A stretch of 5,484 bases of DNA from Escherichia phage Lilledu, in sequence record MK791318; one strand, given 5' to 3'. The notes below the pieces were generated by a model. The model did no database searches, was not told the origin of the DNA, and saw only the letters and a program-made list of their open reading frames with translations. The translations under genes and the position numbers were made by a program. Below are positions 1,893 through 5,425 of the stretch, one piece after another. Each line of letters begins with the position of its first letter. Position 1 is the stretch's first letter.

Positions 1893-2344
1893 ACTCCAAC
1901 GAATCTGCTGTAGCCTTTCAAACTGCAATCGCTTCTATCAAAATGATTCAAGCTTCATCCGTCCTCGACCTTACCGAAGACGACTTCGAATTCTTAACTG
2001 GCGACCGTGTCTGGATTGCTACTGACCGCTCCCGCGCCCGCCGTGCTGTCGAGGCCTGCGTATATGGAACACTGGACTTTGTCGGGTATCCTCGCTTTCC
2101 TGCTCCTGTTGAGTTTATTTCTGCTGTTATCGCTTACTACGTTCATCCGGTCAACACCCAGACCGCTTGTCTCATCATGGAAGGAGCCGAATTTACTGAA
2201 AACATCGTCAATGGCGTTGAATCCCCAGTTAAGGCTTCCGAACTCTTCGCTTTCGTTCTCCGTGTCCGCGCCGGCTGTAAAGACGTCCTCGAAGGTGCCG
2301 AAGACAACATTCGCGCTAAACTCCGTGCACAAGGAATCATGTAA
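1889..2344 (+). CDS. D: External scaffolding protein D, 151 aa
   Basis: ATG 1889-1891 overlaps the C stop (ATGA). AAGGA at 1876-1880 lies 8 nt upstream. The product is near-identical over most of its length to phiX174 D (e.g. WIATDRSRARR.VEACVYGTLDFVGYPRFPAPVEFI.AVIAYYVHPVN.QTACLIMEGAEFTENI.NGVE.PVKA.ELFAF.LRVRAG). Stop TAA 2342-2344. Confidence 0.96.
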   Translation: MNSNESAVAFQTAIASIKMIQASSVLDLTEDDFEFLTGDRVWIATDRSRARRAVEACVYGTLDFVGYPRFPAPVEFISAVIAYYVHPVNTQTACLIMEGAEFTENIVNGVESPVKASELFAFVLRVRAGCKDVLEGAEDNIRAKLRAQGIM

Positions 2345-2351
2345 TGGCTAA
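2064..2351 (+). CDS. E: Lysis protein E (MraY inhibitor), 95 aa, overprinted within gene D
   Basis: ATG 2064-2066 in an alternate frame inside D, preceded by GAGG (2051-2054). The product begins MEHWTLSGILAFLLLLSLFLLLSLTTFIRSTPRP..., a hydrophobic N-terminal transmembrane segment aligning with phiX174 E (MVRWTLWDTLAFLLLLSLLLPSLLIMFIPSTFKRP...). Stop TAA 2349-2351, inside J. The track ORF starts further upstream (2007), but the internal Met matches the E N-terminus and has an SD. Confidence 0.85.
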   Translation: MEHWTLSGILAFLLLLSLFLLLSLTTFIRSTPRPLVSSWKEPNLLKTSSMALNPQLRLPNSSLSFSVSAPAVKTSSKVPKTTFALNSVHKESCNG

Positions 2352-2430
2352 AGGCAAATCTTATCGCCGCGGCTCTGCTGGCAATAAAAAAGGCTCCCGC
2401 CTCTGGTACGTTGGCGGCTCACAATTCTAA
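2344..2430 (+). CDS. J: Small basic DNA-binding / packaging protein J, 28 aa
   Basis: ATG 2344-2346 overlaps the D stop (TAATG). AAGGA at 2331-2335. Hand translation: MAKGKSYRRGSAGNKKGSRLWYVGGSQF, stop TAA 2428-2430. Highly basic with the conserved C-terminal ARLWYVGG.QF-type motif of microvirus J proteins. Shorter than the 38-aa phiX174 J. Confidence 0.85.
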   Translation: MAKGKSYRRGSAGNKKGSRLWYVGGSQF

Positions 2431-2437
2431 TCTCTCT

Positions 2438-2451
2438 GGGGCTTCGGCCCC
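2438..2451 (+). terminator. J-F intergenic stem-loop (GGGGC-TTCG-GCCCC), terminator / mRNA-stabilising hairpin
   Basis: Perfect 5-bp GC stem (2438-2442 / 2447-2451) around a TTCG loop, 8 nt after the J stop. The same GGGGCTTCGGCCCC element sits at this position in phiX174 as I recall it. It is not followed by a strong U-tract, so termination is probably partial at most. Confidence 0.6.
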
Positions 2452-2467
2452 AATTTAAGGATATAAA

Positions 2468-3754
2468 ATGTCTAATGTTCAAACTTCCGCATCTCGTGAC
2501 GCAATTGACTTATCACATCTGGTCTTCAACACTGGCGCTATTGGTCGCCTTAAAGTCGCGTCATGGACTCCTGTTATCGCTGGTGATTCTTTCCAGCTTG
2601 ACGCTGTTGGTGCTTTACGCTTATCCCCTCTGCGTCGCGGCTTGGCTATTGACTCAACTGTTGATTACTTCACTTTCTACATTCCACACCGTCATATCTA
2701 TGGTGATGCATGGATTCAATTTATGAAAACTGGCGTCGCTGCCGCTTCTCTTAACCCTGTAACTACTGGCGAATACGTTGACAGCGCCTCTTATCTTGGT
2801 GTAATCCCTTCTGCTGATGGCAAGGTTCCCAAGTTCCTGCACCAAGGCTATCTCAATATTTACAATAACTACTTCAAAGCCCCTTGGATGGCTGACCGTA
2901 CTGAGGCAAACCCCTCCAACTTAAACGACGACGACCGTCGTCACGGCTTCCGCTGCTGCCACTTAAAAAATATCTGGTCTGCGCCTCTTCCTCCTCAAAC
3001 GGAAATTACCCGCGCTATGACTACTGGCGCTACCTCCATTGATATCATGGGTCTTCAAGCTGCCTACGCCCAACTTCATACTGACCAAGAACGTGACTAC
3101 TTCATGCAACGTTACCGTGACGTAATCTCTTCGTTCGGTGGCAAAACTCACTATGACGCTGACAACCGTCCTCTTCTGCTTATGCGCTCTAACTTCTGGG
3201 CTTCTGGCTATGACATTGACGGTACTGACCAAACCTCATTAGGTCAATTCTCTGGTCGTGTCCAACAAACATTCCGCCACTCTGTTCCTCGCTTCTTCGT
3301 ACCGGAACACGGCGTTATTATGACTCTTCAACTCGTACGCTTCCCGCCTACCTGCACTGAGGAAACTCACTATCTCGTCGGCAAAGGCGCACTAAACTAT
3401 ACTGACCTTGCGGGTGATCCAACTCTTTACGGTAACTTACCGCCTCGCGAAATCGAAATGAAAACTCTCTTCCGTGGCGCTGCTGGCTCTACTGAAAAAA
3501 TCAAAATTGCCGAAGGGCAATGGTATCGCTATCATCCTTCCTACGTTGATGGACAATATCACAACCTTCAAGGCTTCCCGTTCATCCAAAATGGTCCAAC
3601 TGGCAACATGGAAAACCGTGTACTGATTGACCATAAAAAATACGACGAATGCTTCCAATCACTTCAATTAACTCACTGGAATGCCCAGGCTAAATACAAT
3701 GTCACTGTATATCGACATATCCCGACCACACGTGATAGCATCATGACTTCTTAA
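2468..3754 (+). CDS. F: Major capsid protein F, 428 aa
   Basis: ORF 2468..3754 with AAGGA at 2457-2461. The product is strongly similar throughout to phiX174 F (MSN.QT...DLSHL.F..G.IGRL......TPVIAGDSF..DAVGALRLSPLRRGLAIDSTVD.FTFY.PHRH.YG...I.FMK.GV ... HLKNIW.APLPP.TE..R.MTT..TSIDIMGLQAAYA.LHTDQERDYFMQRY.DVISSFGGKT.YDADNRPLL.MRSN.WASGYD.DGTDQTSLGQFSGRVQQT ... TTRDSIMTS). Confidence 0.97.
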   Translation: MSNVQTSASRDAIDLSHLVFNTGAIGRLKVASWTPVIAGDSFQLDAVGALRLSPLRRGLAIDSTVDYFTFYIPHRHIYGDAWIQFMKTGVAAASLNPVTTGEYVDSASYLGVIPSADGKVPKFLHQGYLNIYNNYFKAPWMADRTEANPSNLNDDDRRHGFRCCHLKNIWSAPLPPQTEITRAMTTGATSIDIMGLQAAYAQLHTDQERDYFMQRYRDVISSFGGKTHYDADNRPLLLMRSNFWASGYDIDGTDQTSLGQFSGRVQQTFRHSVPRFFVPEHGVIMTLQLVRFPPTCTEETHYLVGKGALNYTDLAGDPTLYGNLPPREIEMKTLFRGAAGSTEKIKIAEGQWYRYHPSYVDGQYHNLQGFPFIQNGPTGNMENRVLIDHKKYDECFQSLQLTHWNAQAKYNVTVYRHIPTTRDSIMTS

Positions 3755-3765
3755 AGCCTATAACG

Positions 3766-3803
3766 TGACAGGGGGAAAAATTTTAATTTTTCGCCCCCTG
3801 TCA
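3766..3803 (+). promoter_or_regulatory. F-G intergenic extended hairpin (terminator-like; candidate complementary-strand initiation / primosome assembly structure)
   Basis: TGACAGGGGG (3766-3775) pairs with CCCCCTGTCA (3794-3803). The stem extends through AAAAA (3776-3780) / TTTTT (3787-3791) with a 2-nt CG bulge and a TTTTAA loop. It lies in the ~99-nt F-G intergenic gap, the location of the F-terminator hairpin and complementary-strand priming signals in phiX174/G4-type phages (established knowledge; the function here is inferred). Confidence 0.6.
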
Positions 3804-3853
3804 GGTTGAACAAGCGCAAGCGCGTTAGCTACCTAACTATAAGGACTACTCAA

Positions 3854-4378
3854 ATGTTCCAGAACTTTGTCACTAAACACAATTCTCCTCAATTTACTAC
3901 TACTATCACAAAGGCTGTCACTCCCGCTGCGTTGGCTCCTATTATTAATACGCCAACCGTTGCGCGTGACAATCTATTTGTGAATCTAACTACTACCGCC
4001 CTGACTTCTCCGGGCGGTATCTCTGCTGTTGTCGCTATCGACAACTCCTCTCATACCGACAATCAGGTCGTTTCTGTTGCTGCCTCACTTTCTACTATCG
4101 GCAGCCTCGTACCTGTTCTTTGTCGGTTTGAATCTGCTACTGTCCCAACGGCTATCCCCGCCTCTGCGGTTACTTACTATCCGTTGGAATTTAAATCATC
4201 TGATACTACTCTGTCCGTTAAGGACTGCGTTACTGTCTCTACTCTTTCTCGCTCTGGCAATCCTGTTTATGTAGGTATTGCCCTTATTGCGAAATCATTT
4301 GTCGCCGGTACTGTGTACGGCTCCATCTCAATTAATCAGGTTGACCAAGAAATCACAACTCTGCAACCTCTCAAATAA
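3854..4378 (+). CDS. G: Major spike protein G, 174 aa
   Basis: ATG 3854-3856 preceded by AAGGA (3841-3845). The product begins MFQNFVTKHNSPQF... and ends ...SINQVDQEITTLQPLK, matching the conserved N- and C-termini of microvirus G proteins (phiX MFQTFISRHNS ... LQPLK). The middle is divergent and reads closer to G4-type G than to phiX G. The track ORF begins at 3806, but that start lies in the intergenic hairpin region and lacks an SD. Confidence 0.9.
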   Translation: MFQNFVTKHNSPQFTTTITKAVTPAALAPIINTPTVARDNLFVNLTTTALTSPGGISAVVAIDNSSHTDNQVVSVAASLSTIGSLVPVLCRFESATVPTAIPASAVTYYPLEFKSSDTTLSVKDCVTVSTLSRSGNPVYVGIALIAKSFVAGTVYGSISINQVDQEITTLQPLK

Positions 4379-4387
4379 GGAATCTCT

Positions 4388-5425
4388 ATGTTTGGTGCAA
4401 TCGCTGGCGGCATCGCCTCTACTCTTGCTGGCGGTCTAATGTCCAAACTGATGGGCGGCAATAAACAAGCCGCCCCTTCAACTCCCGGACAAGGCCTCTT
4501 CGCTACTCCTGAAACTACTATCTCTGCTGACAATGCAGGTATTCAATCTGTTATGCAGGGACCTAACCCGCCTAGCCCTGATCAGGCGGCTCCTACATTT
4601 ACCGAATCTGCCGTCTCCTCACTTAAGGATGCTGGCAAAGGACTCCTCGATGGTACTCTACAAGCTGGCGGCTCTGCTGTTCAACAAGCTCTTCTTAACA
4701 AAATTGGCCTCGGTGGCAAATCTGCTGCTGATAAAGGCAAGGATACTAAAGATTACCTTGCTTCTGCGTTCCCCGAGCTCAACCCGTGGGAACGCGCTGG
4801 CGCTGGTGCTTCCTCTGCTGGTATGGTTGACGCTGGTTTTGAAAACCAAAAGCAACTAACCAAAATGCAACTTGACAACCAAGTCAAAATCGCTAAGATG
4901 CAAAACGACACCCAAAAGGATATCGCTGGTATCCAGTCTGTCACATCACGCATGAATACTAAGGACTCTGTATATGCTCAAAACGAAATGCTCCAATACA
5001 ACCAAAAGGAATCTATGTCACGTGTTGGCGCTATTCTCGAAAACACAAGCCTCACCAAACAACAACAAACTTCTGAAATTATGCGCCAAATGCTTACTCA
5101 GGCTCAAACCTCAGGACAACACTTTACTAACGCTCAAATCCAAGAGCTTACTCGAAAAGTCGGTGCTGATATTGATGCTGTTCGTGCTAACACTGAACGC
5201 ACCCATGTAGAAACTGACCGCTCTAAACAGGAAGTCCAAAACTCACGTTACGCATCATCACAGGTCGGTAAAACCGCCAAGGACGTATCAAATGTCATTA
5301 GTGACGCATCTTCTGGTATTGTTGATTATTTTCGTGGCGTTGATAAAGCTGTATCGGACACTTGGAACAATTATTGGAAAGATGGTAAAGCCGACGGAGT
5401 AGGCTCCAACATGTCTCGCAAATAG
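4388..5425 (+). CDS. H: Minor spike / DNA pilot protein H, 345 aa
   Basis: ATG 4388-4390 with AAGGA at 4377-4381, overlapping the G stop. Gly/Ala-rich N-terminus [21 protein letters not shown], central block [51 protein letters not shown], and C-terminal ...[23 protein letters not shown] all align with phiX174 H. Stop TAG 5423-5425. Confidence 0.95.

Follow-up and report, generated by a model that had tools for sequence, protein, structure and literature searches.

Escherichia phage Lilledu very probably carries a structural cassette co-inherited within a wild Bullavirinae lineage, and its structural module and G4-like backbone differ in affinity

The window, that is, the whole stretch of 5,484 nucleotides of Escherichia phage Lilledu (MK791318) that was analyzed, was found to carry every open reading frame of the Bullavirinae gene set (A/A*, B, K, C, D, E, J, F, G, and H), in canonical order and on one strand. 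The sequence opens at the ATG of gene A, as in the Lille records, and not at the start of the phiX174 numbering. The following genes and elements were assigned:

1–1635, + strand: gene A, replication initiator, 544 aa (Pfam Phage_GPA; exact match to QEM40921.1; G4-clade-affiliated backbone)
610, + strand: A*, internal in-frame start of A
1188–1550, + strand: gene B, internal scaffolding protein, 120 aa, overlapping A (Pfam Phage_B)
1550–1714, + strand: gene K, 54 aa (Pfam Protein_K)
1632–1892, + strand: gene C, DNA maturation, 86 aa (Pfam Phage_C; annotated at these coordinates in Lilleto and Lilleput)
1889–2344, + strand: gene D, external scaffolding protein, 151 aa (Pfam gpD)
2064–2351, + strand: gene E, lysis, 95 aa, in the +1 frame within D (open reading frame; Pfam Microvir_lysis, 19.7 against a cut-off of 25 bits)
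2344–2430, + strand: gene J, basic DNA-binding packaging protein, 28 aa (Pfam Microvir_J, PF04726, 36.2 against a cut-off of 30 bits)
2437–2452, + strand: J–F intergenic GC hairpin (RNA fold −12.2 kcal/mol, z −2.1)
2468–3754, + strand: gene F, major capsid protein, 428 aa (Pfam Phage_F; exact match to QEM40924.1)
3755–3830, + strand: F–G intergenic block with a long hairpin at 3762–3807 (DNA fold −20.7 kcal/mol, z −5.0)
3854–4378, + strand: gene G, major spike protein, 174 aa (Pfam Phage_G; exact match to QEM40925.1)
4388–5425, + strand: gene H, pilot or minor spike protein, 345 aa (Pfam Microvir_H)

The products of A, B, K, C, D, J, F, G, and H all passed their Pfam gathering scores, while E fell below its cut-off but is syntenic, ends 7 nt beyond the D stop codon inside J, and is 98% identical to its counterparts in phages lillemer and Lilleto. 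The ATG at 3854 is the likely start of G, the mechanical open reading frame beginning at a TTG at 3806. The Bullavirinae were recognized by a genome of ~ 5.4–6.1 kb in which B and K overlap A and E lies inside D. External scaffolding protein D (gpD, 268.8 bits) and major spike protein G (Phage_G, 105.9 bits) were both detected with Pfam; neither is known from the gokushoviruses. A scan of the whole Lilledu genome against Rfam returned no family at threshold. An earlier note on this DNA had placed J at 2344–2430, F at 2468–3754, and the end of G at 4378 and had remarked that J is short, and these points were confirmed: J has 28 aa, against 38 in phiX174, 26 in ID2, ID18, and PJNS002, 25 in G4, and 24 in alpha3.

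A protein look-up identified the A, F, and G proteins as exact, residue-for-residue matches to the Lilledu entries, with no difference from that record detected and with the gene order and the ATG start at A as in sibling phages. For the exact H and B sequences, no match was present in the protein collection searched. Gene B is without annotation in the sibling records. Lilledu (MK791318) was described by Olsen et al. (2020; Viruses 12:986; PMC7552041) as one of five 'gequatroviruses', and its genome is given as 5483 nt in their table, the sequence analyzed here being 5484 nt. It is an already known, deposited, and published natural phage.

Six siblings were retrieved by megablast, with nucleotide identities to Lilledu of 98.1% (lillemer), 97.7% (Lilleto), 97.2% (Lilleput), 96.8% (Lilleen), 96.0% (MG1), and 93.7% (SECphi17), and all six were isolated in nature, wastewater, sludge, or sewage being the source (Denmark, China, and one sewage sample). 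The same nearest relative was found for all genes: the 11 proteins were 97–100% identical to those of lillemer, and in the same range to those of Lilleto except for B (94%). Such a uniform outcome is what the earlier note had itself set against its proposal of a mosaic protein set. J was identical in six of the six siblings, while F was 97–100% and G 91–99% identical. The sibling alignments contained 111–362 differing columns, synonymous for the most part; the 111 that separate Lilledu from lillemer comprised 80 that are silent in all frames, 13 that change a protein, eight in intergenic sequence, and 10 indels, and F carried 37 synonymous and no non-synonymous changes. The genes of Lilledu are under purifying selection. 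Similarity to the siblings was patchy, with the J–F hairpin allele resembling that of SECphi17, positions 3400–4400 resembling lillemer and Lilleto, and positions 1–400 resembling Lilleput and Lilleen, an allele pattern indicative of recombination between siblings.

Beyond lillemer and Lilleto, the next relatives were SECphi17 and then L035, a complete genome from a metagenome, with similarity roughly uniform across genes except G. L035 is 85% identical at the nucleotide level, and its proteins gave 92% for A, 95% for D, 93% for J (28 aa), 92% for F, 92% for H, and 72% for G. J, F, and G are inherited together and do not form a mixed set, in a lineage to which the Lille phages, MG1, SECphi17, and L035 belong, with Salmonella phage PJNS002 as a more distant member. 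There is accordingly little doubt that Lilledu is a natural lytic microvirus of the Bullavirinae, with E. coli K-12 MG1655 as host, Danish wastewater as source, and a publication date of 2020, and that positions 2344–4378 are an ordinary structural cassette co-inherited in this wild lineage.

The A* and D proteins, with the C-terminal part of A, had been described in the earlier note as phiX-like. Both were nearer to G4, A* being 88% identical to G4 versus 83% to phiX174 and D 87% versus 80%; the same was true of full-length A (85% versus 72%) and of B (67–71% to the G4 clade versus 57% to phiX174). Grouping with the G4 clade received NJ bootstrap values of 100% for A, 94% for D, 80% for C, 74% for A*, and 73% for B, and in the per-gene NJ trees no gene joined phiX at > 50%. 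The resemblance to phiX174 lies in the 11-gene architecture, the TAATG overlap of D and J, the architecture of the F–G hairpin, and an F protein at 74% identity; the two phages differ at the genome level (64% nucleotide identity), in J length, and in A, G (41%), and H (70%). Likewise, phages of the genus Gequatrovirus (G4, ID2/talmos, and ID18) match Lilledu at 67–93% in A, A*, B, K, C, D, and the C terminus of H and have a short J, but differ in F (67%), G (40–51%), and J (60–62%).

These affinities bear on classification. On protein A, the Lille phages, PJNS002, and the G4 clade formed one group (100% NJ bootstrap; 82–85% aa identity), as is required of a Gequatrovirus, while neither a G4-type F nor a G4-type G was found in Lilledu, F lying outside the cluster of G4-type F proteins (100% bootstrap). 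Placement in Sinsheimervirus, which calls for a J of 38 aa as well as high identity to phiX174, failed on a genome-wide identity of 63.9%, as well as on J. NCBI taxonomy places Lilledu in 'unclassified Bullavirinae'. Global nucleotide alignment with recognized Gequatrovirus species gave 71.6–73.0%. Olsen et al. (PMC7552041) reported BLAST similarities of 59.1–67.9% to such species and almost no similarity of gpG in any of their five phages, and still called them gequatroviruses.

The relationship between the backbone and the structural genes was followed with a sliding comparison. Outside ~ 2000–4800, an interval that spans the 3′ end of D/E, J, F, G, and the N terminus of H, the excess affinity of Lilledu to the G4 clade, relative to that of phiX itself, was +6 to +21 points, while inside the interval it was ~ 0 (−4 to +4), with sharp transitions near ~ 2000 and ~ 4700. 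Nucleotide identity of H to the G4 clade was 51–62% over 4401–4700 and 85–93% over 4801–5300, and the N-terminal third of H belongs to the divergent block, its C-terminal two-thirds being G4-clade-like. The same discordance relative to the G4 clade was seen in PJNS002. The backbone (the C terminus of H, A, B, K, C, and the 5′ part of D) goes with the G4 clade, and J–F–G–H(N) lies equally far from each of the classical clades; set against the three of them, it makes up a fourth, deep type of structural block. The discordance is old and is common to the whole Lille/SECphi17/L035/PJNS002 lineage. It most likely goes back to an ancient module exchange. Modular exchange among Bullavirinae clades has reportedly been recognized since wild microvirid coliphages were surveyed in 2006.

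The F protein was 79% identical to that of PJNS002, the nearest outside the lineage, 74% to that of phiX174, 71% to that of alpha3, and 67% to that of G4, and the best solved F chain was 9k3n_F. The description of F as phiX-like stood in so far as phiX174 is nearer than alpha3 or G4; F did not cluster with phiX, the bootstrap for that grouping being 16–25%. Branching of the F lineages was star-like, with every alternative below 50% NJ bootstrap, and rooting of the F tree with an Eel River pequenovirus capsid protein (37% identity) gave no supported deep branching and no direction for an exchange of F. A scan of IMG/VR with F returned only genomes of the classical clades, at 67–74% identity, and no intermediate donors. 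The Lilledu F is a deep type of its own.

One interpretation of the same data is that no module was exchanged, and that the lineage is a vertical sister of the G4 clade in which the structural block evolved faster or is saturated; we regard this as unlikely, but as deserving serious consideration. The split of {phiX, alpha3} from {Lille, PJNS002, G4 clade} keeps 19% bootstrap and is not significantly rejected by the F tree, between-clade F identities all lie within 64–76%, and G is hypervariable everywhere; note that on NJ trees of 12–15 taxa, exchange and lineage-specific rate shifts are not rigorously separable. However, within the G4 clade F is 88–91% identical, compared with 87–90% for A, and between phiX and G4 the values are 66% and 69%, and because these pairs are alike F is not intrinsically faster than A. 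The identity between Lilledu and G4 nevertheless falls from 85% in A to 67% in F, equal to the phiX–G4 distance. An acceleration confined to the Lille phages would predict an F further from phiX than is the F of G4, while it is in fact nearer (74% versus 66%). The sharp transitions near ~ 2000 and ~ 4700 also speak against a purely vertical history, as does the clear transfer of F elsewhere in the subfamily: recomputed identities and trees gave NC28 and ID21 a G4-type F on an alpha3-type backbone.

The G protein was 99% identical to those of lillemer and Lilleto, 91–93% to those of the other siblings, 67–77% to those of metagenome relatives, and at most 51% to those of classical phages. Over its whole length, it was 42% identical to G of G4, 41% to that of phiX174, 47% to that of PJNS002, and 51% to its best outside match, ID18. 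The four peptides quoted in the earlier note as G4-like were all present, and three of the four were nearer to G4-clade G, the fourth being nearest to PJNS002; the label holds for these three motifs but is weak for the protein as a whole, which is about equally remote from G4 and phiX174 and joins G4, ID12, ID18, and ID204 with only 69% NJ support. In PJNS002, G clusters with the ID2 and phiX proteins (94%). No gene of the lineage diverges faster than G, and within the wider lineage this gene, at least, has been exchanged or has diverged beyond recognition. A likely host-range determinant, G may have a role in the K-12 host range; the recorded host is E. coli C for the G4-clade phages ID204 and ID11 and K-12 for Lilledu.

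A recent natural recombinant that joined phiX174-like A*, D, and F to a G4-like J and G is hardly credible. It would fit an F nearer to phiX174 than to G4, a J that is short like the G4-type proteins, and the three G motifs, but A* and D are nearer to G4, F does not cluster with phiX, and G is as far from one parent as from the other. The short J does not deserve the label G4-type, being 60% identical to J of G4 (60–62% across G4, ID2, and ID18) and forming its own group with PJNS002 (99% bootstrap). At least six independent isolates, and a relative that is 85% identical, carry the same gene set, and no 300-nt stretch of Lilledu exceeds 81% nucleotide identity to phiX174; recent recombination is refuted because there is no high-identity phiX-like or G4-like tract. 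The apparent patchwork arose because the genome had been compared with two references only.

An engineered or AI-designed genome, such as an Evo-type phiX174 derivative with a short heterologous J, has a precedent in Evo-Phi36 (bioRxiv 10.1101/2025.09.12.675911; PDB 36cr, where F has 427 aa, G has 175 aa, and the J chain carries the sequence of G4 J), in which a 25-aa G4 J likewise sits in a phiX-type capsid whose F is nearer to phiX than to G4, but it is the least credible origin and is refuted because the Lilledu proteins match exactly a natural GenBank isolate published in 2020, its genome being 64% identical to phiX174 where Evo-Phi36 is 96.9%, its J and F being those of its own wild lineage, its differences from wild siblings being overwhelmingly synonymous with compensatory stem changes, and its start lying at the ATG of gene A, as it does in the Lille records, and not at the phiX174 numbering start. 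Of the three origins offered in the earlier note, natural recombination, a divergent wild lineage, and design, only the divergent wild lineage was upheld.

The J protein, MAKGKSYRRGSAGNKKGSRLWYVGGSQF, begins at the classic TAATG, where its start codon overlaps the stop of D, has K or R at seven of its 28 residues, and ends with the conserved RLWYVGG motif in the alignment. The nearest solved J chain was 9k3n_J of PJNS002 (J identity 88–92%). PJNS002 (PQ479935) is the nearest structurally solved relative and resembles Lilledu in its short-J architecture (26 aa), but differs in overall nucleotide identity (78.5%), in G, and in its host, rough Salmonella. The J–F–G question is covered by cryo-EM structures of PJNS002 (9k3n), phiX174, G4, and alpha3. 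In entry 9k3n, the 26-aa J is bound to F, and the F residues that anchor J (D14, D62, and R215) are invariant. The shell is a T = 1 assembly built from F, with pentameric G spikes that meet host LPS; the basic N terminus of J binds ssDNA and its C terminus (RLWYVGGSQF) docks on F. The ssDNA is condensed by J and tethered to the inner capsid surface. The J–F interface is common to all Bullavirinae, with G(A/S)RLWYVGGxQ(F/Y) in J and the three invariant anchor residues in F, and length variation is confined to the basic N-terminal arm. J and F remain compatible because the C terminus of J is conserved and the anchor residues of F are invariant. The supposed compatibility problem of a mixed J/F/G set therefore falls away: the set is co-inherited, the interface is shared, and 9k3n already holds a 26-aa J in such a capsid.

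The J–F hairpin (TGGGGC-TTCG-GCCCCA) was identical in SECphi17 and L035, while the Danish siblings carried GGGAC-CACG-GTCCC instead, the two alleles differing by 7 nt of indels and by stem changes that compensate one another; the hairpin is a probable transcription terminator or attenuator after J. The 76-nt F–G block was 100% identical to that of ID2 (Gequatrovirus talmos), ID204 having one further mismatch at 3833, and the sequence was also present in L035 and L036; by comparison, the neighboring F is ~ 70% and G < 55% identical. The F–G spacer aligned with those of phiX174, ID2, ID18, and PJNS002. A complementary-strand origin of the G4 type was not found, as the different F–G spacer of G4 proper (V00657, 3884–4019), with its annotated primer and origin, did not align with the Lilledu spacer. 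The F–G hairpin is probably a complementary-strand priming site of phiX174-type architecture rather than a G4-type origin, and the block may point to phiX-type (PriA-primosome) over G4-type (primase-only) priming.

The useful outcomes are in part negative, in that the patchwork is only apparent and the genome is not engineered. The solved PJNS002 structure already answers how J and F stay compatible, and the lineage has a distinct, co-inherited J/F type. No prior description of the module map or of the priming-site type of these phages was found in the literature. Tentatively, and with slightly less than even confidence, we propose a fourth Bullavirinae lineage in which the structural module at ~ 2000–4800, bounded near the D/E–J junction and in mid-H, would have its own deep history, while non-coding cassettes would still be traded with other clades and priming would be of the phiX type. 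The phiX-like F–G spacer bears on complementary-strand priming in 'gequatroviruses'.

The sequence is a complete microvirus genome of 5484 nt, opened at the A start codon (ATG), with every gene on the + strand. Its features are as follows.

Genes and intergenic elements
1-1635, + strand: A, with A* starting at 610
1188-1550, + strand: B
1550-1714, + strand: K
1632-1892, + strand: C
1889-2344, + strand: D
2064-2351, + strand: E
2344-2430, + strand: J, 28 aa
2431-2467: J-F spacer, with a GC hairpin at 2437-2452
2468-3754, + strand: F
3755-3830: F-G spacer block, 76 nt, with a hairpin at 3762-3807
3854-4378, + strand: G
4388-5425, + strand: H

Pfam gathering scores were passed by nine of the 10 distinct proteins; E occupies the syntenic position and its Pfam match fell under the gathering cut-off. 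The E lysis ORF encodes 95 aa and extends 7 nt past the D stop into J, and its identity to other clades is only 44-58%. The region singled out in an earlier note, 2344-4378, corresponds exactly to J, F and G with two spacers. Since the ORF coordinates, the length of J and all four peptides quoted from G were as described there, the ORF-level observation is real.

Megablast against GenBank phages returned full-length matches to lillemer (98.1% nucleotide identity), Lilleto (97.7%), Lilleput (97.2%), Lilleen (96.8%), MG1 (96.0%) and SECphi17 (93.7%), followed by Salmonella phage PJNS002 (83.5% over 86% of the query) and the G4-clade phages (79-82% over 71-86% of the query). The relatives are natural phages recovered from wastewater in Denmark, sludge in China and one sewage sample; E. 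coli K-12 MG1655 was the isolation host for SECphi17 and the Danish phages. The genome is itself an already published natural isolate: the Danish phage paper (PMC7552041) describes Lilledu as the fifth sibling, MK791318, with a size of 5483 nt, and exact-sequence look-up matched A, F and G residue for residue to QEM40921.1, QEM40924.1 and QEM40925.1 of Lilledu, encoded on a 5484-nt contig. A designed or engineered genome, one of the origins considered in the earlier note, was rejected on this ground; the designed phage Evo-Phi36, in which a capsid of phiX type carries the G4 J (bioRxiv 10.1101/2025.09.12.675911; PDB 36cr), is 96.9% identical to phiX174, whereas the value for Lilledu is 64%. 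NCBI taxonomy lists Lilledu as a species under 'unclassified Bullavirinae'. As a separate observation on classification, the 5.5-kb microvirus Salmonella phage SP14 (PP501405) is filed under Caudoviricetes.

Every protein was 97-100% identical to its lillemer counterpart, and the same range held for Lilleto except for B (94%); J was identical in all six siblings. The alignment with lillemer contained 111 differing columns, comprising 80 changes silent in every overlapping frame, 13 protein-changing, eight intergenic and 10 indels, and within F there were 37 synonymous and no non-synonymous changes. Changes relative to the siblings resemble natural drift constrained by purifying selection. Their distribution was patchy: positions 1-400 were nearly identical to Lilleput and Lilleen, not Lilleto, while 3400-4400 were nearly identical to lillemer and Lilleto and showed 5-10 differences per 100 nt against Lilleput, Lilleen and MG1. 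This patchiness indicates ongoing recombination among co-circulating siblings within the clade. In the Lilleen record (3694-3806), ~150 nt are absent across the end of F, the spacer and the start of G, with an annotated F/G overlap, and the lillemer record is linearised within F, which is consequently annotated in fragments; both are probably assembly or annotation artefacts.

When G was used to query a metagenome protein collection, spikes at 77, 72 and 67% identity were recovered. One of these lies on L035, a complete circular metagenome-derived genome of ~5.5 kb (Logan run SRR25667319) that is colinear with Lilledu at 85% nucleotide identity. Its A, D, J, F and H proteins were 92, 95, 93, 92 and 92% identical, respectively, with J again 28 aa, and G was the sole protein to drop, to 72%. 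The phiX/G4 mosaic proposed in the earlier note was therefore not borne out: every gene has the same nearest relatives, the siblings and L035, G being the fastest-evolving, and this is a uniformly divergent single wild lineage.

The phiX and G4 labels that the earlier note had attached to individual proteins were compared with amino acid identities.

Amino acid identity of Lilledu proteins to reference phages
A (full length): G4 85%, phiX174 72%
A*: G4 88%, phiX174 83%
D: G4 87%, phiX174 80%
F: G4 67%, phiX174 74%, PJNS002 79%, alpha3 71%
G: G4 42%, phiX174 41%, ID18 51%, PJNS002 47%, alpha3 37%
J: G4 60%, phiX174 62%, PJNS002 88%

Most of this labelling did not hold. No part of the genome is more G4-like than A* and D, which had been described as phiX-like. 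F is indeed nearer to phiX174 than to G4, but it formed no cluster with phiX (16-25% bootstrap), was excluded with 100% bootstrap from the cluster of G4-type F proteins, and is most aptly regarded as a deep F type of its own. For the supposedly G4-like G, three of the four quoted motifs were nearer to G4-clade spikes and the fourth was nearest to PJNS002; neighbour-joining (NJ) support for grouping with G4, ID12, ID18 and ID204 was 69%. The short J belongs to the lineage itself, grouping with PJNS002 at 99% bootstrap. Among the matches to G, the 25-kb Mycolicibacterium phage J1 record (MZ417522) contains a G gene with the same match statistics as phiX174 records (40.2% identity, 113 bits), which is probably phiX spike-in contamination.

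A deeper discordance was seen when closeness to the G4 clade was compared, in 400-nt windows, between Lilledu and phiX174. From ~4600 through the origin to ~2000, covering the H C-terminus, the H-A spacer, A, B, K, C and 5' D, Lilledu showed an excess G4-clade affinity of +6 to +21 identity points, while over ~2000 to ~4800 (3' D/E, J, F, G and N-terminal H) the excess was about zero (-4 to +4). PJNS002 gave the same profile. NJ trees placed the lineage with the G4 clade for A (100% bootstrap), D (94%), C (80%), A* (74%) and B (73%), and not for F and J; H was split, its C-terminal part being G4-clade-like and its N-terminal part unplaced. Variation in evolutionary rate alone is a poor explanation of this pattern. 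F is as conserved as A within the G4 clade (88-91% versus 87-90%), phiX and G4 share 66% identity in F and 69% in A, and the Lille F is nearer to phiX F than the G4 F is, so that acceleration on the Lille branch alone would be insufficient. The F types branched in a star-like order even with a pequenovirus outgroup included, and the lineage that changed its structural block may be either Lille/PJNS002 or the G4 clade.

The spacers varied on a finer scale. The J-F hairpin of Lilledu, GGGGC-TTCG-GCCCC, is the allele of SECphi17 and L035; in the four Danish siblings the hairpin reads GGGAC-CACG-GTCCC, with compensatory changes in the stem and 7 nt of indels, and MG1 is intermediate in form. The hairpin in the F-G block had a predicted DNA fold of -20.7 kcal/mol (z -5.0). 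The 76-nt block is 100% identical in ID2, ID204 having one further mismatch at 3833, and its sequence is also carried by L035 and a second metagenome relative, L036; the flanking genes are ~70% (F) and <55% (G) identical to those of ID2. From the sequence, this suggests either cassette exchange or extreme constraint. The block resembles in architecture the phiX174 F-G spacer, which is the PriA (n') primosome assembly site, and is unlike the G4 spacer, which bears an annotated primer and origin. It may be, judging by this likeness, that complementary-strand priming in Lilledu is phiX-type, with a putative site in the block.

The earlier note had also asked how a mixed J/F/G set could stay compatible. 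In the cryo-EM study of PJNS002 (9k3n), a 26-aa J occupies a groove of F; PJNS001 and PJNS002 share its hydrogen bonds to Asp14, Asp62 and Arg215 of F, and in PJNS002 the J residues Lys3, Arg7, Arg17 and Tyr20 contact DNA. Chains of 9k3n were the best solved matches to Lilledu F and J. The three F residues were invariant in Lilledu and every reference aligned, conserved counterparts of the four J residues were found by inspection of the alignment, and the J C-terminal core KG[A/S]RLWYVGGxQ[F/Y] was invariant next to a variable basic arm. Since the interface core is universal and J and F co-evolved in one lineage, there is no special compatibility problem.

Exchanges of the structural block are normal within Bullavirinae, for which Rokyta et al. 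in 2006 reportedly described three clades with inter-clade transfers. The backbone of NC28 and ID21 is of alpha3 type (A 95% identical to that of alpha3), and their F shares 80-81% identity with F of the G4 clade and only 67% with that of alpha3, a clear inter-clade transfer with 100% bootstrap. ID2 and ID204 both belong to Gequatrovirus talmos, and the G of ID2 groups with PJNS002 and phiX while that of ID204 falls with G4 and ID18; G acts like a cassette that is swappable or hypervariable. PJNS002 was placed in Sinsheimervirus by its own paper; A shares 86% identity with G4 versus 70% with phiX174, its genome is nearest to the Lille lineage, and only in H (81%) and F (76%) is it relatively high to phiX. 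The sole genuine mosaicism in Lilledu is a modular discordance that is old, common to the whole lineage and typical of Bullavirinae, together with fine-scale exchange of non-coding cassettes.
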